Positions 2,981-20,132 of a DNA stretch of 24,000 nucleotides are shown piece by piece. Each line of letters begins with the position of its first letter. The stretch's first letter is position 1. Made by a program: the position numbers and the translations under genes. Origin of the DNA: an uncultured bacterium (GTDB taxonomy: Bacteria; Chloroflexota; Dehalococcoidia; Tepidiformales; Tepidiformaceae); contig CAWHVJ010000008.1 of assembly GCA_963832795.1 (NCBI GenBank), forward strand, positions 28,997 through 52,996, read 5' to 3'. A model generated the notes under the pieces. It searched no databases, was not told the DNA's origin, and worked only from the letters and a program-made list of their open reading frames with translations.

Positions 2981-3735
2981 CTATCCCGCCTGGCGCGCGA
3001 CGGCTTCGGCGGCGGCCTTCGCGGCGGCTTCGTCTCCCAGGTACCGCGAGGAGACCCTGCGCAGGTCCGCGTCCAGCTCGTAGAGGAGGGGAATGCCGGT
3101 GGGGATGTTGAGCTCGGCGATGTCGTCGTCGCTGATCACGTCGAGGTGCTTCACGAGGGCGCGCAGGCTGTTGCCATGTGCTCCGACGAGCACATCGCCG
3201 CCCCGCTCGAAGGTCGGGGACGATGGCGTCGTACCAGTACGGCAGCGCGCGGGCAACGACGTCCTTCAGGCACTCGGTGGCCGGCAAGAGCTCGGGCGGG
3301 AGGCCCGCATAGCGGGCGTCATGGTGTGGATGGCGCTCGTCGTCCCATCCGAGTGCCGGGGGCGGCGTGTCGTAGCTGCGGCGCCACGCGAAGACCTGCT
3401 CGGGGCCGAACTTCTGTGACGTCTCCAGCTTGTTCAGCCCCTGGAGCGCGCCGTAATGGCGTTCGTTCAGCCGCCATGAGCGGCGCACCGGGAGCCAGCC
3501 CAGGCCAATCTCGTCGAGCGCGATGTTGACGGTCTGGATGGCGCGCCGGAGCAGCGACGTATGGACGACGTCGATGCGGCCCGCCTCGCGGCCGAGCGCT
3601 TGCCCGGCGGCGTGCGCTTCTTCAACGCCCGCGCTCAGAGAGGGGCACATCGTGCCAGCCGGTGAAGCGGTTTTCCTGGTTCCAGGTGCTCTCGCCGTGC
3701 CGAAGGAGGATCAGCGTGTACGTGCTCTCACCCAC
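2981..3735 (-). pseudogene. gpmA: 2,3-bisphosphoglycerate-dependent phosphoglycerate mutase, interrupted by two +1 frame breaks as sequenced
   Basis: Three minus-strand frame segments join into a complete GpmA. Segment 1: GTG 3735 ..[33 protein letters not shown]. Segment 2: [47 protein letters not shown]. Segment 3: [33 protein letters not shown].., ending at stop TAG 2981-2983. The breaks lie near 3628 (GGG run in sense) and near 3202 (GGGG run), each one extra base. 755 nt minus 2 gives 251 codons. Confidence 0.85.
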
Positions 3736-3761
3736 GTTCGCATTACACCGCTTTCAGCGAA

Positions 3762-3800
3762 AACGGGCCACCTGCGCGCCGCCGCGGCGGGGGCGGCCGT
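3762..3800 (-). terminator. Possible intrinsic terminator after the ClpX-ZnF/HTH gene
   Basis: An imperfect GC-rich stem-loop (GGCCGCC...GGTGGCC on the minus strand) lies just after stop 3803 and is followed by CGTTTTCG. The stem has mismatches and the T tract is only 4 nt. Confidence 0.25.
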
Positions 3801-3802
3801 TA

Positions 3803-4166
3803 CTACTCCTCGCCGGAGAAGCGCTCCCAGGCGGCCTGGCGGCTGATTCCGAGGGCTTCGCCGATGCGGCTCCAGGGGACGTTGCGCGAGCGGAGTTCGC
3901 GAACCTGTGCGGCTCACGCCGCGTTCGGAGGCGTGGAGGGCTTCGGCGACGGGGCGCAGGGAGGCGAGGAGTGCGTCGTCGGACATGCCGGCGAGGTCGG
4001 CGAACGGTTTGGCGGGTTCGTCGGCGAGGATGGCGTTGCAGAGGGCGACGCAGCCGTCGCAGATGTAGACGCCAGGCCCGGCGATGAGCTTTTCGACGTT
4101 GGAGGCTGGTTTGAGGCAGAAGGAGCAGTAGAGGGCGGTTTGGGTGGCAGCGGCGGCGGTGGCCAT
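3803..4166 (-). CDS. Small ClpX-type C4 zinc-ribbon protein with C-terminal helix-turn-helix (one +1 frame break as sequenced)
   Basis: N-terminus [36 protein letters not shown] matches the ClpX N-terminal zinc-binding domain pattern (CxxC..CxxC). After about 3910 the frame with G/C third positions moves +1 and reads [34 protein letters not shown], with stop TAG 3803-3805. The as-sequenced ORF 3711-4166 continues instead as Arg/Pro-rich text. GGAG lies 9 nt upstream of ATG 4166. 364 nt minus 1 gives 121 codons. Confidence 0.7.
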
Positions 4167-4196
4167 GTGCGCGACTCCGGTTTGAGATGGGCGTCA

Positions 4197-4225
4197 GGTT
4201 AAGCTTGACGCGGAGGAGGTGTCAA
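4197..4225 (-). promoter_or_regulatory. Candidate sigma-70-type promoter of the ClpX-ZnF/HTH gene
   Basis: The minus strand reads TTGACA (4225-4220), a 17-nt spacer, then TTAACC (4202-4197), about 30 nt upstream of ATG 4166. The -35 is perfect and the -10 is weak. Confidence 0.4.
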
Positions 4226-4238
4226 GCAGCGCCTTGAC
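4204..4238. promoter_or_regulatory. Three CTTGAC/GTCAAG hexamers (operator-like)
   Basis: CTTGAC 4204-4209, GTCAAG 4221-4226 and CTTGAC 4233-4238. The segment 4221-4238 is the perfect palindrome GTCAAG-N6-CTTGAC and overlaps the candidate -35. Confidence 0.35.
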
Positions 4239-4372
4239 AGTCGTCGGCGCGATGTTGAGCGTCTACGGCCGGGCGTCGTACCCGCTCACTTCGCTGCGCT
4301 GCGTTCGGGGCTCGGGTTCGTTGGGTGAGGGCCGTGGCGGTTGTGGGGTGGCGTGTGGCTGGTTCGAGCGCC

Positions 4373-4392
4373 CGCGCCCACAGTGGGGCGCG
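4373..4392 (-). terminator. GC-rich hairpin immediately after the O-methyltransferase stop (no U tract)
   Basis: CGCGCCC (4373-4379) pairs with GGGCGCG (4386-4392) around a 6-nt loop, 1 nt from the corrected stop 4394-4396. No T run follows on the minus strand, so this is at most an I-shaped terminator. Confidence 0.3.
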
Positions 4393-4393
4393 A

Positions 4394-5375
4394 CTACCGG
4401 CGTTGGAATTCGGCGATGCCGCGGCCGCTGCGGTTGGCGGCCGGCGTTGGTGAGGCGGAGGCCGGCTTCGTTGGCGAGGGCTTCGAGCTCGGAGAGCGTG
4501 CGGCCCTTGCCGCCAACGAGAACGAGCATGAGGAGTTCGGGAGAAGCGGGTTCGTCGTCGACGGGGCCGCCGACCACGACGAGGCGGCCGTTCGCGGGCA
4601 GCGCTTCGGCGCAGCGGTGGAGGATGCTGCGTGCTTCGGGATCCGGCCAGTCGCCGAGAACGCTCTTGAGCAGGTAGAGCTCGGCGCCTGCCGGCAGCGG
4701 GTCGAAGAAGCTCTGCGGGACGAGCTGGACACGGTCGGCGACACCGGCCGCCTCGAGCACCGGAGGGGCGTTGGCGATGACGCGCGGGACATCGACGAGG
4801 ATGCCGCGCAGGGCGCGGCGTGGGCGCAGGACCTCGGCGAGGAGGGAGCCTGTGCCGCCGCCGACATCGACCACGGTGGTGATGCCGTCCCAGTCGTTGT
4901 TGAGGAGGACCTGGCCGTCGGGAGTGCCGTGGCCGGGGCCCATAAGCGCGTCGAACGTTTCGGCGACGCCGGGGTTGGCCTCGAGGTCTTCCCAGAATGG
5001 GGCGCCGAACACTTCGTGGTAGGCGGGCCGGCCCGTCTGGACGGCCTTCAGGAGGCTCGCCCACGCGCCGGCCATGCGTCCGCCGATGCCATCGAGGCCG
5101 AGGCCGATACGGGCCCCCGGGTCCAGCAGCGGGCGGGCGGCGTCGTTCAGGGCGAAGTGTCTTGGCGAGGGCTCTTCGAAGATGCCTTTGCTCGCCAGGT
5201 GCCGCAGGACACGCTCAAGCGCGTCGGGGTCGCAGGCTACCTCAGCGGCGACCTCGTCGATGCTCCGTGGGCCGGTAGCGAGCGCCTCGGCGACGCCGAG
5301 CGTTGCCACGACGCGGATGGCCCAGGGTGTCTCGAGGTCCGTCAGTGCCCAGAAGTCGACCGTCTCGTGCGCCAT
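4394..5375 (-). CDS. Class I SAM-dependent O-methyltransferase (COMT/family-2 type), one +1 frame break near the 3' end as sequenced
   Basis: MAHETVDFWALTDLETPWAIRVVATLGVAEAL is the N-terminal dimerisation/wHTH part, VVDVGGGTGSLLAEVL is SAM motif I, and LLKSVLGDWPD is also present. Near 4430 the frame moves +1: ..LRLTNAGRQP then SGRGIAEFQRR, with stop TAG 4394-4396. The as-sequenced ORF runs on to 4263 with a Pro/Arg-rich tail. ATG 5375 is preferred to GTG 5441, which would overlap the upstream gene by 55 nt. Confidence 0.8.
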
Positions 5376-14051: not shown

Positions 14052-14275
14052 TGGCGGACGGCGACGCAGGGCAGGAGCCGCGCTACGCGGCGAACTGCCG
14101 CTACCTCCAGATGACGTTCGGGAACAATCCCGACGCGGGGCTGATCAACCTCTGCCGGCACATCATCCGCGACGGCCGAGAGTGCGTGGGCCCGTTCCTG
14201 GATGACACAGAGACGCAGTGCGGTCTGTGGGAGCAGAAGCTGAAGGGCGTGCTGCGGAGCGAGGGCTGGCGGTAA
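14051..14275 (+). CDS. Small four-cysteine hypothetical protein (74 aa)
   Basis: MADGDAGQEPRYAANCRYLQMTFGNNPDAGLINLCRHIIRDGRECVGPFLDDTETQCGLWEQKLKGVLRSEGWR. Good third-position bias; stop TAA 14273-14275. I do not recognise the family. Confidence 0.45.
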   Translation: MADGDAGQEPRYAANCRYLQMTFGNNPDAGLINLCRHIIRDGRECVGPFLDDTETQCGLWEQKLKGVLRSEGWR

Positions 14276-14310
14276 ATCCCGGTCGAACCACGGTCGCTTC
14301 GCGACTGAGG

Positions 14311-14753
14311 CTACACGACGGCGCAGGCCCAGGCTTCGCTCTGGGTCTTGAGGCCGTCGGCTTCCATGTTGACGTAGTTGCGCGAGAGCCGCGCCATAGA
14401 GGACGCCGACGAGCCCGGAGAGGCCGCCCTTCGTCTGCAGCGCGAGGCGCAGGTGCGTGCCGCCGTCCTTGCTCGGCGAGATTTCGTGGGTGGCGACGAT
14501 GCGGCCGCCGAACGCGGGGCCTTCCCACGTGAAGGACTTTTTGCGGCTCGAAGGACGATGACGGTCATGGTGCTGGCGGGGAGGCTTCGGCTGCTTCACT
14601 TTCGCCTTGCTGCCGGCGCCGAAGCGTCCGCTGCCGAGCGCGCGTGATCTTCGTCATGGACTTCGTCCATTCCGGCCAGCGTTCGACATCGGCGAGGATG
14701 GCCCAGACCTGCTCGGGGCTGGCATGGATTTCGCGCGTGACTTCGAGAAACAT
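14311..14753 (-). pseudogene. SRPBCC (polyketide cyclase/START-like) protein, interrupted by five +1 frame breaks as sequenced
   Basis: Joining the minus-strand frames gives MFLEVTREIHASPEQVWAILADVERWPEWTKSMTKIT / ALGSGRFGAGSKAKVKQPKP / PASTMTVIV / FEPQK / SFTWEGPAFGGRIVATHEISPSKDGGTHLRLALQTKGGLSGLVGVLYGAAL / RNYVNMEADGLKTQSEAWACAVV, with stop TAG 14311-14313. The breaks lie near 14641, 14579 (C4 run), 14553, 14540 (A5 run) and 14383. 443 nt minus 5 gives 146 codons. GAGGTG lies 5 nt upstream of ATG 14753. Confidence 0.75.
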
Positions 14754-14857
14754 CGAACACCTCGACGTGGAGTTGATGATCGCAGTGTGCGACGACGGTT
14801 GAGCGGTCGACACCGGCTTTGGTCGCGCAGGGTTTCCGCCAAAGGGCGGACTGGAAC

Positions 14858-14886
14858 CTGACGACACCGCCGGGGGCCGGTACTCT
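14858..14886 (+). promoter_or_regulatory. Candidate promoter giving a leaderless tsaD transcript
   Basis: CTGACG (14858-14863), a 17-nt spacer, TACTCT (14881-14886), then 7 nt to GTG 14894. There is no SD in between. Confidence 0.4.
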
Positions 14887-14893
14887 AGAGCAC

Positions 14894-15896
14894 GTGAACG
14901 TCCTTGCAATTGAATCTTCGTGTGATGAGACGGCGGCGGCCGTCGTAGTGGATGGGCGGGTGCCCCGCTCGTCGATCGTGGCCAGCCAGGTGGACCTGCA
15001 TGCCAAATATGGCGGCATCGTGCCGGAGGTGGCGAGCCGGCAGCACCTGCGCAACATCGCGCCGGTTATCCGCGAAGCGCTCGAGGCGGCGGAGTGCACG
15101 CTGGACGACATTGACGGCGTGGCCGGGACGCGCGGGCCAGGGCTCGCGGGCTCGCTGCTGGTGGGCTACAACGCCGCGAAGGCGCTCGCGTTCGGGCGCG
15201 ATCTGCCCTTCCTGGGTGTGAACCACCTGGAAGGGCACATCTACGCGAACTGGCTGGTGGAAGGGCCGGAACCGCGGTTCCCGGCGTTGTGCCTGGTGGT
15301 CTCGGGCGGGCACACGGACCTCGTGTTCATGCGCTCACATGGACAGTACGAGCGGCTCGGGGGCACGCGCGACGACGCCGCCGGGGAGGCGTTCGACAAG
15401 GTCGGGCGGTTGCTCGGGCTGCCGTTCCCCGGAGGGCCGCACGTGGCGAAGGCGGCGCTCGAAGGCGGGCAAAGTTCGCTCGATCTGCCACGCGCGTGGA
15501 TGCACGGCACGTTCGACTTCAGCTTCAGCGGTCTGAAGACAGCGGTCCTCCACGTGGTGCGCGACGGCAAGTACGACATGGCGAGCATCGCGTGGGAGTT
15601 CCAGGAGGCGGTGGTCGACGTGCTGGCCGGCAAGACCTCGCGGTTGGCGCGCGAGCTGGGGGCGACAGAGGTCCTCGTGGCCGGGGGCGTTGCGGCGAAC
15701 ACGCGGTTGCGCGAAGAACTCCAGCGGCGCTGCCCCGTGCCCGTGCGCATCCCGCCGGCAAAATTCTGCACGGACAATGCGGCGATGATCGGCGCGGTAG
15801 CCGGCCATCGTTTCGCGCTGGGCGAACGCAGCGCCGATCGACCAGGACATCTTCACGACGAACCAGTGGTCGAAGGTTTCCGCGCCGGCCGGTTGA
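14894..15896 (+). CDS. tsaD: tRNA N6-adenosine threonylcarbamoyltransferase, one +1 frame break near the 3' end as sequenced
   Basis: VNVLAIESSCDETAAAVV, GGIVPEVASRQH, GPGLAGSLLVG, VNHLEGH, VSGGHT, AAGEAFDKV and CTDNAAMIG are TsaD/Kae1 blocks. After ..ALGERS (about 15833) the as-sequenced frame has A/T-rich third positions (13 of 29 codons). The +1 frame has 20 of 23 G/C and reads PIDQDIFTTNQWSKVSAPAG, with stop TGA 15894-15896. The uncorrected ORF ends at 15913. Confidence 0.9.
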
Positions 15897-15913
15897 CGAT
15901 GGTGCAAAGATAG
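15875..15913 (+). repeat. Direct repeat copy 1 (tsaD 3' end and stop)
   Basis: GGTTTCCGCGCCGGCCGGTTGACGATGGTGCAAAGATAG is 35/39 identical to 18128-18166 in the same orientation. Confidence 0.9.
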
Positions 15914-16282
15914 CTACCCGACGGCCGAAAGCCAGCGGACAAACTGCGCGGTGGCATCAGCACGGCTGGCCGCATCCGTCTTCGCGAAGACGCTGGACAC
16001 GAGGTTACCAACGTGGCGGGACGTAATTCCGAGCAGCAGAGCCGCCTGGCGGTTGGTCTTGCCTTCGGCCAGGCACAGCAGCACGCTCCACTCTCGTGGC
16101 GACAGCCGGAGGAAGCGGTCGCTTCTGATGGGGTTCTTGCGGGAGATGTCGCGCAGCGTTTCTCCGAGGCCGCTCACCGTCATCCCTACATCCGACGCCA
16201 CCCCATCGGCAGCGCGCCCGGCCGCCAATCCGACGAGCACGCTTCGCTCGATCTCCGTCAGGTCGTCGGACGCCTGGTTCAT
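15914..16282 (-). CDS. Small LuxR/GerE-type regulator made of two tandem HTH units, no sensor domain
   Basis: Unit 1 is LTEIERSVLVGLAAGRAADGVASDVGMTVSGLGETLRDISRK. Unit 2 is LSPREWSVLLCLAEGKTNRQAALLLGITSRHVGNLVSSVFAKT. Both follow the L(T/S)xRExxVLxLxAxG...(I/V)..T(V/S)..H...I..K pattern. ATG 16282 (GGAGAGG 5 nt upstream) is preferred over the track start 16336. Confidence 0.65.
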   Translation of the reverse strand: MNQASDDLTEIERSVLVGLAAGRAADGVASDVGMTVSGLGETLRDISRKNPIRSDRFLRLSPREWSVLLCLAEGKTNRQAALLLGITSRHVGNLVSSVFAKTDAASRADATAQFVRWLSAVG

Positions 16283-16334
16283 GCCGCCTCTCCGTTCTCG
16301 GGGCCCGTCTGGCTCGCACGCAGGCGAGACCGGC

Positions 16335-16340
16335 ATTCTA
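16335..16340 (-). promoter_or_regulatory. Candidate -10 element (TAGAAT) for the LuxR-type gene
   Basis: The minus strand reads TAGAAT about 53 nt upstream of ATG 16282. No convincing -35 is present. Confidence 0.3.
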
Positions 16341-16446
16341 CGCGCCCGCGTTGAGCCGCATGTTATCTGAACCTACGGGGTCGGCGAAAGTTCCGATGGC
16401 TGTTGGCAGCGCCCTAGGGCACTGTGAGGCCGCCGCGCTGAGGCGC

Positions 16447-16478
16447 GAAAAAGGCCGGCAAACCACCGGCCTCTTTTT
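16447..16478. terminator. Bidirectional rho-independent terminator
   Basis: GAAAAA-GGCCGG-caaacca-CCGGCC-TCTTTTT. On the minus strand the 6-bp GC stem is followed by TTTTTC, about 22 nt after stop 16500-16502 of the secreted-protein gene. Confidence 0.7.
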
Positions 16479-16499
16479 CACTAGCGGCTTGGGCGAAAT

Positions 16500-17189
16500 T
16501 TACGTTGGCGAGGTCCAACTGCTGTAGTATGTCCAGTCGCTCAGGTCGTGTGGAAGCATGTACTGGCCGCGTTCGGTGAAGCATCCATAGTAGAAGCCGC
16601 TGGAGTACGGACAGTTTCCGTAGGAGTCATGCGGCACGGCGTTGTAGTCGTACCAGCTCATGATGTGAACCGGGACCGGGCAACCGGTGCTATCGAAAGA
16701 CCCGATGACCTGACTGTTCCAGTATCCCCCATAAGATAAGTTGTTTGCGTAGACGGGGAACAGGTACCCGTCATGCGTACCGGGCGAGGAATGCATGGCG
16801 TAGATGATCGCCTGGAAGTTCCACGACGAATCGTAGATCCCGACGGAGGTCGTCGCACAATAAGGCTGGCCAATTGGCTTCGCGTGGCCAATTATTGCGT
16901 GGGCCCGCGCAGTCACAGTTAGATCACCGCTAACGCCCCACGCGTTGAAATACGCGGTGGACGGGTTGTAGTTCGATACAAAGTCGAGCCCGCGGCCGTA
17001 GTTGGCGGCGCCCTCGCAATCGATGTGCCATCCGCAACTGTTCTGTGCCGACCCGTAGTCGATTGGAGGGTAGAAGTTGAACGTCGTGGCTACCGTCGCT
17101 CGCGCCGGCGCCACCGGAGACATGACTCCGAGCGCGAGGCCCACAACGGCAGCAAGGAAGGCCGTGCGGACGTAGCTCCTGATCATCAT
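16500..17189 (-). CDS. Secreted aromatic-rich, six-cysteine protein of unknown function (weak LytM/M23-like block pattern)
   Basis: MMIRSYVRTAFLAAVVGLALGVMSPVAPARA is a Sec signal with an AxA site. The mature part is rich in Y/W/N/S/G. Start ATG 17189 overlaps the upstream stop (ATGA, 17186-17189), with AAGGAG 7 nt upstream. Local G+C is 55/100 at 16500-16599. Collinear blocks YGRGLDF, IIYAMHSS and SQVIGSFDSTGCPVPVHIMSW resemble M23 blocks, but the metal ligands are only partly conserved. Confidence 0.7.
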   Translation of the reverse strand: MMIRSYVRTAFLAAVVGLALGVMSPVAPARATVATTFNFYPPIDYGSAQNSCGWHIDCEGAANYGRGLDFVSNYNPSTAYFNAWGVSGDLTVTARAHAIIGHAKPIGQPYCATTSVGIYDSSWNFQAIIYAMHSSPGTHDGYLFPVYANNLSYGGYWNSQVIGSFDSTGCPVPVHIMSWYDYNAVPHDSYGNCPYSSGFYYGCFTERGQYMLPHDLSDWTYYSSWTSPT

Positions 17190-17935
17190 TGCGTCAGCTC
17201 CTTCGCGATCGCGAGCACTTCGTTGACCGGCGAGTTCTCGCCCCGCAGCTCGGTGATTACATAGCCATCCGCAACGGGCCGGACCATCGTGATGTACGAG
17301 CCGCCCCGGCCATCCGGAATGATCGATCGAGTTACCACGGCTGCGAGTCCGCCAATTGTCATCGCCGACACTCGATCGGCGGCCCCGTAGGCGTAGTTCC
17401 AGGGCTCTGGGCGTAGCACGGTGCTGATCCCCACGGCATGACCAGTCGCCGTGACAATCACCACCCGGCCAGCCGCTATTACCTTGTCTCCACACAACGT
17501 GGCGAGCGCCGAGTCCGGCAGCTCGGGGTGGTCGGGCTTCAAACCCGCCGGCACGACGCTTCCGAAGATCGCCAGGGCGGTCCCGTCGGCAGCCGAGATG
17601 TTTTTGTGGGAGAGCCCGGCCGAACACTGGTATTCGGGTCCGTCCACGCCTTCTGATCCCGAGCGCATGGTGATTCCGTTGATCACACCCGCGAACTGCG
17701 GCTTGGCCCACTCCGCTGTAATAGTCGCGCCGGCGGCTTCGTCGGTCCCCGGAGCGTCGGCAAACGGCGTGCCGGGTGTTGGCTGGCCTTGCGCCTGTGC
17801 GTCGCCCCGCGTTACGGCGCCAGTCGCGGGGCCCCTGGCAAGCCTGGCGGCGGCGAAGGCCCCGGTTGCGACGATGGCGGCGAGGGCCGCAACGCCGAGA
17901 AAAGCCCACGGGCGAGCCCTGGTGAGGTTACGCAT
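17186..17935 (-). CDS. Secreted or N-terminally anchored protein of unknown function
   Basis: MRNLTRARPWAFLGVAALAAIVATGAFAAA is a signal/anchor, with no lipobox Cys and no twin-Arg. It is followed by an Ala/Gly/Pro-rich linker and a roughly 170-aa domain. ATG 17935 is preferred; the 86 residues upstream in the track ORF are Arg/Gly/Cys-rich and lack coding bias. It is coupled to the downstream gene. Confidence 0.6.
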   Translation of the reverse strand: MRNLTRARPWAFLGVAALAAIVATGAFAAARLARGPATGAVTRGDAQAQGQPTPGTPFADAPGTDEAAGATITAEWAKPQFAGVINGITMRSGSEGVDGPEYQCSAGLSHKNISAADGTALAIFGSVVPAGLKPDHPELPDSALATLCGDKVIAAGRVVIVTATGHAVGISTVLRPEPWNYAYGAADRVSAMTIGGLAAVVTRSIIPDGRGGSYITMVRPVADGYVITELRGENSPVNEVLAIAKELTQ

Positions 17936-18061
17936 GACACACCCCGCGCGCAGGCATCCGCGACCGGGCCGTTTCCATATTGATAGTTCGCACAGGCGTC
18001 CTCCGCATTGGTATGTGGGGCGCGTAACGCACCCTACCACCACGTTATGACGCTCCGGAAC

Positions 18062-18077
18062 CGTGGAATGTTCCACG
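18062..18077. promoter_or_regulatory. Palindrome CGTGGAA-TG-TTCCACG in the divergent intergenic region
   Basis: Perfect 7-bp arms with a 2-nt spacer. It lies about 127 nt upstream of ATG 17935 (minus strand) and about 115 nt upstream of ATG 18192 (plus strand). Confidence 0.35.
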
Positions 18078-18127
18078 TAGGCTGCTCCATCGTTTCCGCC
18101 ATGGCCAACGGCCGTGTCTGACCGCGG

Positions 18128-18166
18128 GGTGTCCCCGCCGGCCGGTTGACGAAGGTGCAAAGATGG
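18128..18166 (+). repeat. Direct repeat copy 2 (decayed tsaD 3'-end copy)
   Basis: GGTGTCCCCGCCGGCCGGTTGACGAAGGTGCAAAGATGG is 35/39 identical to 15875-15913. In the same register it reads GVSPPAG-stop versus KVSAPAG-stop in tsaD. Confidence 0.9.
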
Positions 18167-18191
18167 ATGCATCTCCCTGCTGGGGTGCGCC

Positions 18192-18662
18192 ATGCCGATT
18201 CCCGTCGCTCGTCTAAATCACGCTGTCCTCTACGTCCGCGATCTCAACCGATCGGTGGCGTTCTACCGCGAAGCGTTCGGCTTTGAGGAGATCGCGCGGG
18301 AGGGCGGAATGATGGCGTTCATGCGGGCGGCCGGTTCGACGAACCATCACGATCTCGGGCTGATGCAGGTGGGGGCAAACGCGCCGGCGCCCCCGCGCGG
18401 GGCGACCGGGCTCTACCACCTCGCGTGGGAGGTGCCGCGGATCGAGGACCTCGCCGCGGCACGGGTGACGCTGGCGGAGATGGGCGCGCTCAGCGGGCAA
18501 AGCGATCACGGCGCGACGAAGTCGCTCTACGGCGCCGACCCCGACGGCAACGAGTTCGAAGTGATGTGGATGGTGCCGCGGGAGGACTGGGGCGAGCACG
18601 AGCGGCGCGCCGTCATCGAGCCGCTGCGCATGGAGCGCGAGGTGGCGAAGTACGGCGGGTGA
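18192..18662 (+). CDS. VOC family protein (glyoxalase / extradiol dioxygenase fold)
   Basis: LNHAVLYVRDLNRSVAFYREAFGFEE, HHDLGL, LYHLAWEV and DPDGNEFEV are typical VOC beta-alpha-beta-beta-beta module motifs. Confidence 0.8.
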   Translation: MPIPVARLNHAVLYVRDLNRSVAFYREAFGFEEIAREGGMMAFMRAAGSTNHHDLGLMQVGANAPAPPRGATGLYHLAWEVPRIEDLAAARVTLAEMGALSGQSDHGATKSLYGADPDGNEFEVMWMVPREDWGEHERRAVIEPLRMEREVAKYGG

Positions 18663-18786
18663 GCGCCGGTTAGCTTGCACGCTGGTGCACGAGACCACAG
18701 ACCGCTTGCTTACCCGCGCGGCTCCATTCAACTGGGGAGCGGGCTGATGCGGTAATCTCCGCGCTACTTCCGGTGCGGGGGCCTGC

Positions 18787-19155
18787 ATGACGTTCGACGA
18801 GTTCATCGGGATGGAGCACAGCGGCAACGAGCGCGAGGCGATCGCGGTGGTGCGGATCGAGGCACATCACTGCAACCCGACCGGGAACATCAACGGCGGT
18901 GTCTTCCTGACGATGGCCGACAACATTTCGACCGGTGCGGCCAACCGGGCGTACTTCGAGAAGACGGGCGAGCGGAAGTTCCTCGTCGGGGTCGACCTCC
19001 ACGCCGTGATGCTGGCGAACCAGCAGGGCGGGACGGTGCGAGCGGTGGCGGTGCCGGTGCGCGTGGGGCGCCGGATCACGGTGGTGCGGACGCAGGTGTT
19101 CGGTGACGACGATCGGCTGCTCGCCGAAGTGACGACGACGCACGTGCCGACGTAG
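18787..19155 (+). CDS. PaaI-family hotdog-fold thioesterase
   Basis: NPTGNINGGVFLTMADNISTGAA and GRRITVVRTQVFGDDDRLLAEVTTTH follow the PaaI/4HBT pattern. 122 aa. Confidence 0.7.
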   Translation: MTFDEFIGMEHSGNEREAIAVVRIEAHHCNPTGNINGGVFLTMADNISTGAANRAYFEKTGERKFLVGVDLHAVMLANQQGGTVRAVAVPVRVGRRITVVRTQVFGDDDRLLAEVTTTHVPT

Positions 19156-19196
19156 GAGCGACGCGGGCGTCACGCCGCAGTGCGACGCGCGGAGCG

Positions 19197-20132
19197 CTAC
19201 TTGAAGTGAGGCAGCACGGTGTCGGCGAAGAGGCGGCCGGCCTCCTTCGTGTCGCGTCCGAAGAACTCCATCACGAACATCGTGCAGCCCAGGTCGATGT
19301 GCTTCTGGATCTGCTCGCGGACGCGCTGGGGGCTGCCGGCGATGGCGAGCGGGCCGGTGGGGTCGCCCATGTGGCCGCCGAAGATCTTCTTCGCAGTCTC
19401 GACCATGGGGCCGGCGCTGGCTTCGTCGGGGGCGATGGTGACCAGGCATTGCTGGCTGATGGTGACCTCTTCGAGTGGGCGGCCGACGGCAGCGCAGTGC
19501 TCCTTCAGGACGCCGACCTTGCGCTCGAGCAGGCCCTGCTGGGCGGCCAGGTTGTTCCAGATGTCCGCCTCTTTGGCGGCGAGCTTGAGCGTCACCTTTT
19601 CGCCGGCGCCACCGATGAGGAGCGGGGGCTTGCGCGCCGGCTTGGGCTCGCAGACGACGTTGTGCGCCTGGACGTACTTGCCTTCGAACGTGACCTGGGG
19701 CTCGTCGCCCCACATGCGCTTGAGGAGCGTGACCGTCTCGCGCAGCTGGCCGAGGCGCTGGCCCGTCGAGAGGAAGGGCACACCGAAGTCGGTGAACTCG
19801 CGCGGCATCCAGCCGGCTCCGAGGCCCGGGATGATGCGGCCGCCGGCGATGTTGTCGATGGTGGCGATGACCTTGCCGAGGTGTGCCGGGTTGCGCATGC
19901 CGGCGGGCGTCACGAGGGTGCCAATCTCGACCTTCGAGGTGACGGCAGCGACCGCCGAGACAAGCGACCACGCCTCGAGGATGGGGATGGTCGGCGACTG
20001 CGGGCCGTAGAGGTGGTCGCAGACCCAGAGGGAGTCATAGCCCATGGCCTCGAACTCGGTGGCCGCGCTCTTGCTCTCGTCCCAGGTGCGCTTGATCTGG
20101 GGGATGGTGACGCCGAAATGAATCTTGGGCAT
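19197..20132 (-). CDS. Luciferase-like monooxygenase (LLM) class oxidoreductase, probably F420-dependent
   Basis: HFGVTIPQ, GYDSLWVCDHL, LEAWSLVSAVAAVTSKVEIGTLVT, RNPAHLGKVIATIDNIAGGRIIPGLGAGW, PPLLIGGAGEK and ADIWN are present. GGAGG lies 5 nt upstream of ATG 20132. Confidence 0.8.
   Translation of the reverse strand: MPKIHFGVTIPQIKRTWDESKSAATEFEAMGYDSLWVCDHLYGPQSPTIPILEAWSLVSAVAAVTSKVEIGTLVTPAGMRNPAHLGKVIATIDNIAGGRIIPGLGAGWMPREFTDFGVPFLSTGQRLGQLRETVTLLKRMWGDEPQVTFEGKYVQAHNVVCEPKPARKPPLLIGGAGEKVTLKLAAKEADIWNNLAAQQGLLERKVGVLKEHCAAVGRPLEEVTISQQCLVTIAPDEASAGPMVETAKKIFGGHMGDPTGPLAIAGSPQRVREQIQKHIDLGCTMFVMEFFGRDTKEAGRLFADTVLPHFK

Follow-up and report, generated by a model that had tools for sequence, protein, structure and literature searches.

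We analysed a 24,000-nucleotide stretch of contig CAWHVJ010000008.1 from an uncultured Tepidiformaceae bacterium (hereafter the window), focusing on a three-gene segment that lies between tsaD, the gene for the tRNA t6A threonylcarbamoyltransferase (14894..15896, plus strand; Pfam TsaD, E=3.6e-93), and a gene of the glyoxalase/dioxygenase superfamily, VOC (18192..18662, plus strand; Pfam Glyoxalase, E=4.9e-17). VOC forms the right flank of the segment and is followed by a 4HBT thioesterase gene on the plus strand and then a luciferase-like monooxygenase gene on the minus strand. All three genes of the segment are on the minus strand: a LuxR/GerE-type helix-turn-helix regulator of 140 aa, or 122 aa from an MNQ start (15914..16336; Pfam GerE, E=8.9e-12), whose stop codon at 15914-15916 is the first triplet of the insert; P229 (16500..17189), a Cys- and aromatic-rich secreted protein with a signal peptide; and P250 (17186..17938), which combines an N-terminal membrane anchor, a Pro/Ala/Thr-rich linker and a beta-rich extracytoplasmic domain. 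A direct repeat, which we call R, brackets the segment: copy 1 (15875..15913, plus strand, attL-like) abuts the insert at the end of tsaD, and copy 2 (18128..18166, plus strand, attR-like) occupies the native position of R upstream of VOC.

The two copies of R agree at 35 of 39 positions in direct orientation, and a repeat finder delimited the match to 15875-15911 and 18128-18164 (34/37, spacing 2253). Apart from the 17-nt stretch CGCCGGCCGGTTGACGA, the window has no exact direct repeat of that length or longer; the 29-nt core CGCCGGCCGGTTGACGAWGGTGCAAAGAT has exactly two occurrences in the 24 kb and none in 100 dinucleotide-preserving shuffles. An earlier note on this DNA had described the repeat, the LuxR-type stop at the start of a segment with minus-strand genes only (15914), a 10-mer, CCATCGTTTC, at both 15805 and 18087, and G+C counts of 55/100 within the segment and 66/100 at the beginning of the window, and we reproduced each of these observations. 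R is not the dispersed repeat that, according to the note, would have refuted its interpretation: across 1.3 Mb of related loci it occurs upstream of VOC only, apart from copy 1 in the window and in its sister contig L001 (ENA ERZ25039539 contig_32985, 581 kb, 97.8% identical to the window). An exact-pattern scan of JGI metagenomes returned no match to the right half of R, and the 29-mer core had none among viral contigs.

The best 80 tsaD loci among GTDB species representatives all belong to metagenome-assembled genomes of Tepidiformaceae or Dehalococcoidia (Chloroflexota), the closest at 90% aa identity. Because none of these 80 has VOC, 4HBT or insert genes adjoining tsaD, the representatives are too distant to reveal an empty site, and the informative relatives were found through close homologues of VOC. 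In one of them, L084 (Logan ERR11748454, 1270 nt; TsaD 94%, VOC 92% and 4HBT 90% aa identity), tsaD passes directly into VOC with a single copy of R between, which is the empty configuration that had been predicted by joining about 15913 to about 18167. Positions 1-397 of this contig align to 15514-15911 of the window and positions 361-897 to 18128-18663, the 37-base overlap being one R, and this R copy aligns to both window copies. Copy 1 of the window meets tsaD where the lone copy of L084 does (the Val codon followed by TCx xCG CCG GCx Gxx TGA), which argues that the empty configuration preceded the insertion. Copies 1 and 2 also share the states C7, C16 and G18, all differing from L084, and thus derive from the junction of this clade itself, not from some distant attP.

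Comparison among the relatives explains the composition of R, which consists of a Val codon, a 5-codon extension, the tsaD stop and a conserved block upstream of VOC. Copy 1 reads as V-S-A-P-A-G codons, a stop and then CGATGGTGCAAAGAT. Most Tepidiformaceae TsaD proteins (80 relatives) have C-termini of the form ...W[AS][RK]V, and comparison with the related locus L168 identifies SAPAG (STPAD in L084) as a 15-nt in-frame addition ahead of the original stop. The clade's basic junction, as found in L168, is V-stop-CGAxGGTGCxAAGATGG, about 30 nt and the VOC start, and its ACGA-GGTGC-AAGATGGA block upstream of VOC is kept in L084, L085, L086 and L166-168, independent of the sequence further upstream. 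The motif TGCAAAGAT, contained in copy 2 and represented by TGCGAAGAT in L168 and TGGCAAGAT in L086, reads as an extended -10-like element 31-35 nt ahead of the VOC start, and would be part of a VOC promoter. A consensus scan of 15700-18300 found no sigma-70 -35/-10 pair, and TTGACG in R, considered as a -35 element for AAAGAT, was rejected for a spacing of only 7 nt.

The true end of tsaD is ...NQWSKVSAPAG-TGA, with the TGA at 15894-15896, as the earlier note had read it (KVSAPAG-stop), although the open reading frame (ORF) as given reaches 15913 because an extra G at 15833 shifts the frame. This G is missing from L001 and from the relatives L084, L085 and L168, as judged from the alignment and the C-termini of 80 relatives. 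With 28 indels in 15.8 kb between the window and L001 assemblies, the tsaD frameshift is probably a sequencing error, and the indels of both assemblies look like long-read indel error rather than biology. The tsaD gene of L001 is itself frameshifted by another extra C, corresponding to window position 15361, and its gene call is split to 185 aa.

These comparisons bear on the alternative that the repeat carries no recombinational meaning and reflects chance, a regulatory motif (promoter or operator) present in two independent copies, or an assembly artefact. In its favour, the right half of R holds the conserved extended -10-like motif, a similar sequence, TGCTAAGATGG, lies upstream of clpS in L085, and indel errors are present in both assemblies at the density just given. 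Yet the shuffles produced no chance match, the similarity spans the tsaD coding end as well as the motif and terminates right at the borders of the insert, only one copy is present at the empty site, and the structure is found in two independent assemblies of different strains. Copy 1, moreover, points into the 3′ end of a gene running toward it, and a promoter there would serve no gene. The shuffles and the L084 empty site largely refute this explanation, and we consider it highly improbable.

A further proposal, that copy 2 is the decayed remnant of a duplicate of at least 80 nt of the tsaD 3′ end, did not survive. Outside the 37-mer, similarity is at the level of chance: the best local alignment of the tsaD 3′ end with the DNA upstream of copy 2, the 37-mer excluded, scored 12.5 against 11.1±2.0 for genomic controls, 57 of 238 of which reach that score, and a leftward extension anchored at the left edge of the repeat scored 0. 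The 10-mer CCATCGTTTC, which had suggested the longer duplicate, is absent from tsaD of L001, L084 and L085 (CACCGC there), and the DNA adjoining it near copy 2 is the promoter region of the cargo, kept in the otherwise unrelated locus L170. We therefore reject a tsaD pseudo-end of 80 nt upstream of copy 2. In the same part of tsaD, at 15799-15811, the window and L001 show five synonymous differences in 13 nt (GTA GCC GGC CAT CGT vs GTC GCG GGG CAC CGC), and 4 or 5 of the window's variants agree with the DNA upstream of copy 2 (GTAG..CCATCGTTTC), which might reflect a short patch of gene conversion or be coincidental.

Taken together, the data establish that the segment is a discrete insertion and that 37-39 bp of its target were duplicated at a hotspot; recombination through R may have been driven by homology or by a recombinase acting in trans. 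We conclude that the segment is very probably a non-autonomous 2.2-kb accessory islet, comprising the LuxR-type regulator and a membrane-anchored/secreted operon, that was inserted into the few dozen bases separating the end of tsaD from the VOC promoter region. Since 37-39 bp of the target were duplicated, tsaD retains its stop and C-terminal extension in copy 1 and VOC its upstream control region in copy 2. The integration footprint proposed in the earlier note holds as far as a discrete insertion with target duplication is concerned, but its replacement of the gene end does not: the identity block begins at the last conserved codon (Val), and the duplicated codons are a lineage-specific extension rather than conserved tsaD.

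Other relatives carry different contents at the same junction. In L085 (TsaD 89%, VOC 88% aa identity), roughly 1.5 kb of other sequence, with a lipoprotein-like gene on the minus strand, lies there without a flanking repeat; the tsaD tail of L085 differs (WARVGEREQGKSPRKAATA followed by the stop), and its right side keeps only GATGGTGCAAAGATGG. In this contig, positions 2156-2365 contain a run of N that an exact 55-nt duplication flanks, a scaffold gap artefact, so that the lipoprotein-like gene is incompletely known. L168, L166 and L167 (TsaD 91%, VOC 86% aa identity) have yet another insert, about 1.1 kb long, in which two membrane-protein genes lie on the minus strand; there the tsaD end is canonical (...WAKV-TAA-CGAAG), the right junction is TTTACGAGGGTGCGAAGATGG, and any repeat is at most 8 nt long and imperfect (6/8). 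In L086 (VOC 90% aa identity), a glycosyltransferase-like minus-strand gene lies upstream of a decayed R, and similarity to the L084 junction begins at the left border of copy 2. Of the 80 loci that a metagenome search with the VOC protein returned, L086 alone was close, and this contig stops short of any tsaD. Throughout the window and the relatives examined, all genes between tsaD and VOC, or just upstream of VOC, oppose the tsaD/VOC strand (window 15914-17938; L085 1459-2630; L168 522-1417; L086 1-370; L169 3-215).

The tsaD-VOC interval thus holds nothing in L084, three genes in the window and L001, one in L085 and two in L168, as expected of a horizontal gene transfer (HGT) hotspot, and we regard the junction as such because different relatives hold different small minus-strand inserts there. 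Among the more distant Tepidiformaceae loci L028-L049, Band_7/SPFH, DUF454 and metallophosphoesterase genes are conserved downstream of tsaD, which suggests that the hotspot behaviour is specific to the window's closer relatives; upstream of tsaD these loci have a luciferase-like monooxygenase 70-73% identical to that of the window. The L085 and L168 inserts differ in their breakpoints and lack a comparable repeat, so a hotspot constrained by selection fits at least as well as the att site implied by the earlier note. Breakpoints cluster in a 40-nt zone, as would result from selection, since cells cannot do without tsaD and VOC depends on the sequence upstream of it.

The polarity of the change could also be reversed, with the three genes ancestral at the site, L084 a secondary deletion between R copies, and the contents of L085 and L168 replacements. 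A deletion between 37-bp direct repeats would yield exactly the L084 structure, and polarity is unreadable from four roughly equidistant relatives (78-83% nucleotide identity). Against this, two R copies still need a duplicating insertion, so that the event is merely shifted back; G+C at third codon positions (GC3) is atypical in the insert genes; their family is extremely rare and found in other contexts; two strains differ far less in the insert than in its flanks, pointing to recent presence; and only L001 among the relatives carries the insert genes beside tsaD. We consider an ancestral islet improbable.

The divergence between the window and L001 adds evidence of a different kind. Differences number 10 in 2745 positions (0.36%) within 15866-18610, which includes copy 2 and VOC, and 343 in 13,069 (2.6%) elsewhere, a seven-fold drop of the kind taken as a sign of recombination in HGT hotspots, and the alignment's three longest stretches without a difference all fall within these limits. 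The LuxR gene has no difference from L001 and VOC has one in 471 nt, while VOC is not unusually conserved among the other relatives. On the left, the last difference falls at 15865, 10 nt before copy 1; on the right, differences resume at 18685, just past the VOC stop and not at copy 2. Since the low divergence extends across VOC, we interpret R-insert-R-VOC as a unit of recent common ancestry. This pattern fits a recent transfer of R-insert-R-VOC between strains, and it also fits clonal persistence of a strain-specific block whose core flanks were scrambled by population recombination; consensus effects from mixed-strain assembly are a less likely cause.

With regard to mobility functions, the absence of integrase and transposase genes stated in the earlier note was borne out by family searches of the window and the insert. 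None was found in the 24-kb window, within ±10 kb in L001, or among the 25 commonest families of the 141 ORFs downstream of tsaD in 54 relatives. The insert likewise contains no detectable tRNA or tmRNA and has no match in plasmid and phage collections, and no Rfam family matched within 14500-19500. Transposons, insertion sequences and miniature inverted-repeat elements are recognised by terminal inverted repeats, a target-site duplication of 2-14 bp and a transposase; here we found neither terminal inverted repeats nor a transposase, and the duplication is 37-39 bp. Integron cassettes have an attC hairpin at the 3′ end, with intI and attI upstream, whereas R is a direct repeat without imperfect inverted-repeat structure and is accompanied by neither an integrase nor an Rfam match. 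Integrative mobile elements exploiting Xer recombination use XerCD at 28-bp dif-like sites at the replication terminus, but cumulative GC skew climbs monotonically over the window with no terminus switch, and R, as read against the familiar dif consensus, is without an 11-6-11 dif-like organisation. Beside the repeat copies there is no tyrosine or serine recombinase gene of the sort that an integrase-type island or prophage remnant would carry.

The islet resembles cis-mobilizable elements (CIMEs) in that direct repeats stand at both borders with one copy in the empty site and the insert, a GerE regulator and two family-less proteins, is without integration or transfer genes. CIMEs retain attL and attR but lack the genes for integration and transfer (ICEberg 2.0, PMC6323972). 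On such an explanation, R would be the att site of a tyrosine recombinase carried by a related integrative element or located elsewhere in the genome, copies 1 and 2 would be attL and attR, and the islet would be both integrated and excised in trans. Much of the structure speaks for this: a conserved gene whose 3′ end holds an imperfect direct repeat of 37-39 bp, with both flanking functions intact, a clean empty site with one copy in L084, an islet without a recombinase, and a low-divergence block that ends within 10 nt of copy 1 and within about 25 nt of an R-like sequence past VOC, with R-like sequences also bordering VOC in L085. Precedents exist in CIMEs (PMC6323972) and in the microcin H47 island (PMC3191183). 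Nevertheless, neither the window nor L001 nor the top families of the 54 related loci showed an element with an integrase at or close to tsaD; the other inserts differ in breakpoints, with no repeat in L085 and about 8 nt (6/8) in L168; R, from inspection of its letters, lacks inverted core-type binding sites around a central overlap; and the right half of R is conserved wherever VOC is found, which a promoter role would explain. We rate movement in trans as the main rival to the route favoured below, and as less likely than that route.

That explanation could extend to a possible third, degenerate R-like sequence just 3′ of the VOC stop (18663..18689, plus strand), which would make the locus a tandem accretion of the form R-[3 genes]-R-[VOC]-R′. 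Its local alignment score to copy 1 is 12, at about the 97th percentile of window controls (p ~0.03), a borderline value with regard to chance, and it is not significant against copy 2. In L085, R-like sequences of about 35 nt lie on both sides of VOC (2736-2771 and 3270-3300), with a score of 11 that none of 81 controls reach. We treat the third copy as a borderline lead rather than a finding. VOC has different right-hand neighbours, namely 4HBT (window, L084), clpS (L085) or an 81-aa ORF with a response regulator (L168), so VOC may itself be a cassette-like unit. The spacer between VOC and 4HBT is 124 nt in the window and L001 (18663-18786) and 30 nt in L084 (897-926), and the roughly 94 nt extra in the window are unalignable. 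Carried further, R could be the site of an unrecognised trans-acting cassette system in Tepidiformaceae that targets the tsaD stop region and stacks small, promoter-carrying antisense cassettes in tandem (R-[LuxR, P229, P250]-R-[VOC]-R′) with its recombinase elsewhere in the genome, an integron-like or accretion-type platform for gene capture in Chloroflexota; we view this as speculative and improbable.

As for the route of entry, we tentatively propose, with somewhat less than even confidence, that the islet arrived by recombination through R and the adjacent VOC homology, using host functions. The incoming DNA would already have had one R, from the same hotspot in a related strain, and would have recombined with the chromosomal R and the adjoining VOC homology through host recombination functions. 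This might have occurred by a Campbell-type single exchange of a circularised fragment, or by a homologous end in VOC combined with a short-homology or illegitimate join at R, and either route would leave R on both sides of the insert. Since its arrival, R-insert-R-VOC has behaved as a single unit of recent common ancestry between strains. We favour this route because the R copies carry the clade's own states and the shared block spans copy 2 and VOC, and because the other occupants differ in breakpoints without a comparable repeat and no recombinase was seen. Low divergence that includes copy 2 and all of VOC is what the route would lead one to expect, since VOC either was the homologous anchor or travelled with the insert.

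Several points weigh against entry through R and VOC homology, or against the insertion as we read it. At 37 bp, the repeat is close to the minimum length for RecA-type exchange, and duplications of that size are unusual for illegitimate joins. Site-specific integration classically leaves a footprint of this sort, an imperfect direct repeat of 37-39 bp where a housekeeping gene ends together with a clean empty site, and the sharp edges at both ends of the block are unexpected from random homologous crossovers in long flanks alone. The copies differ at 3/37 positions, exceeding the 0.36% divergence inside the block, so the duplication must be old unless the copies differed from the start. The recombinase search in this genome covered 24 kb, and a gene elsewhere is possible. 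Finally, the empty site comes from a single contig (L084) that is short (1270 nt) and about 17% diverged.

Among described systems, the islet belongs with the small insertions without an integrase that occupy HGT hotspots lacking mobile elements (PMC5635113), and its att-like repeat recalls CIMEs and the microcin H47 island. The type is a known one, found here in a phylum that has received little study. The CIMEs described in Streptococcus and further Firmicutes (PMC6323972) resemble the islet in their att-type repeats at the 3′ end of a housekeeping gene, their lack of integrase and transfer genes and their dependence on functions in trans, but their att sites are shared with a cognate integrative and conjugative or integrative and mobilizable element at the same locus, and here no such partner was found, the inserts are just 1-2 kb and the other occupants of the site are without repeats. 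The microcin H47 island of Escherichia coli, a 13-kb island with extensive imperfect direct repeats and no recombinase of its own, undergoes recA-independent excision and integration (PMC3191183). It is similarly small, with imperfect direct repeats and no integrase or excisionase, but its mobility by host-context functions was shown experimentally and it has several crossover segments and known cargo, whereas our case is built on sequence comparison. HGT hotspots without mobile elements (Oliveira et al. 2017, PMC5635113) share varied accessory genes between the same flanks, a lack of mobility genes and recombination in the flanks; they are usually without target duplication, unlike the islet with its 37-39-bp repeat and sharp-edged low-divergence block. 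Homology-facilitated illegitimate recombination inserts foreign genes without an element-encoded enzyme, in that homology (here VOC) anchors one end of the incoming DNA while the opposite end is joined through short homology or none (PMC3240628), although it has been described experimentally in a few competent species and in E. coli conjugation, and a 37-bp duplication would be an atypical product. The Macrococcus prophages found between tsaD and an ABC-transporter gene (PMC6008420) also insert just downstream of tsaD, with att repeats of 23-32 nt, but they are 40-50 kb long, carry their own integrase, occur in Firmicutes and have no sequence or cargo relationship to the islet.

The locus offers a clean example of accessory-gene entry in uncultured Chloroflexota, obtained from metagenome data in occupied, empty and alternatively occupied states. 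In this clade, the DNA just past the essential tsaD gene is a hotspot of gene turnover, where duplication of the junction allows insertion without damage to either neighbour. If R were the target of a recombinase, it would represent a new site-specific capture system, which the present evidence does not require.

The cargo itself also has features of foreign origin. GC3 is 0.81 in the LuxR gene and 0.76 in both P229 and P250, compared with 0.86-0.93 in eight neighbouring genes, and overall G+C is 63.7% for the whole insert versus 68% in the flanks. The lower G+C described in the earlier note is supported by GC3 in all three genes, whereas the overall drop comes mostly from P229 (58.6% G+C), in which the insert's low G+C is concentrated and whose low value at first codon positions (0.49) reflects amino-acid composition. 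Neither P229 nor P250 matches a Pfam, NCBIfam or PHROG family; for P229, 3 homologues were recovered from 5.8e9 proteins and 17 clusters from 1.84e9 representatives, and P250 has 7 homologues. The structure model of P229 was unusable (pLDDT 31), while the C-terminal domain of P250 was modelled with pLDDT of about 75-88 and gave weak PsbP/DcrB/LpqN-like fold matches (E>1e-3). In L082 and L170, a P250-P229 pair or two tandem P250 paralogues adjoin an enoyl-CoA hydratase gene, and in L083 the pair adjoins a different gene; none of these three contexts includes a LuxR gene. The lower GC3 and the presence of P250 and P229 homologues in other contexts together argue that the insert is foreign. In L170, the tandem paralogues (3416-5109; 254 and 252 aa, 62-63% identical to P250) have near-identical upstream regions, and in L082 P250-P229 occupy their position; with a P250 paralogue standing where L082 has P229, the second gene of the pair appears to be exchangeable.

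The P250 stop overlaps the P229 start (ATGA), and the two genes thus form an operon. A G+C-rich hairpin with T/A runs on either side (16447..16482), recovered by a terminator scan with its stem at 16452-16472, is likely the terminator of this operon and would separate it from the LuxR gene. Upstream of P250, at a distance of about 120-130 nt, lies the perfect palindrome CGTGGAATGTTCCACG (18062..18077), and ACGTGGAACATTCCAC is kept about 130 nt upstream of the P250 homologue in the unrelated context of L170 (~3273-3292). From this conservation, the palindrome is likely a candidate operator of the P250-P229 operon, which the LuxR protein may regulate. The cargo would then be a self-regulated envelope/secreted protein pair of an extremely rare family and a candidate strain-specific adaptive trait.

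Upstream of tsaD, the window contains an SRPBCC/polyketide-cyclase-like ORF (14160-14910, minus strand) that is apparently fragmented, with Pfam Polyketide_cyc2 matching over residues 56-98 only. Nowhere else do indels and substitutions separate the window from L001 as densely as in 14160-14910, with 17 differences at 14501-14750.

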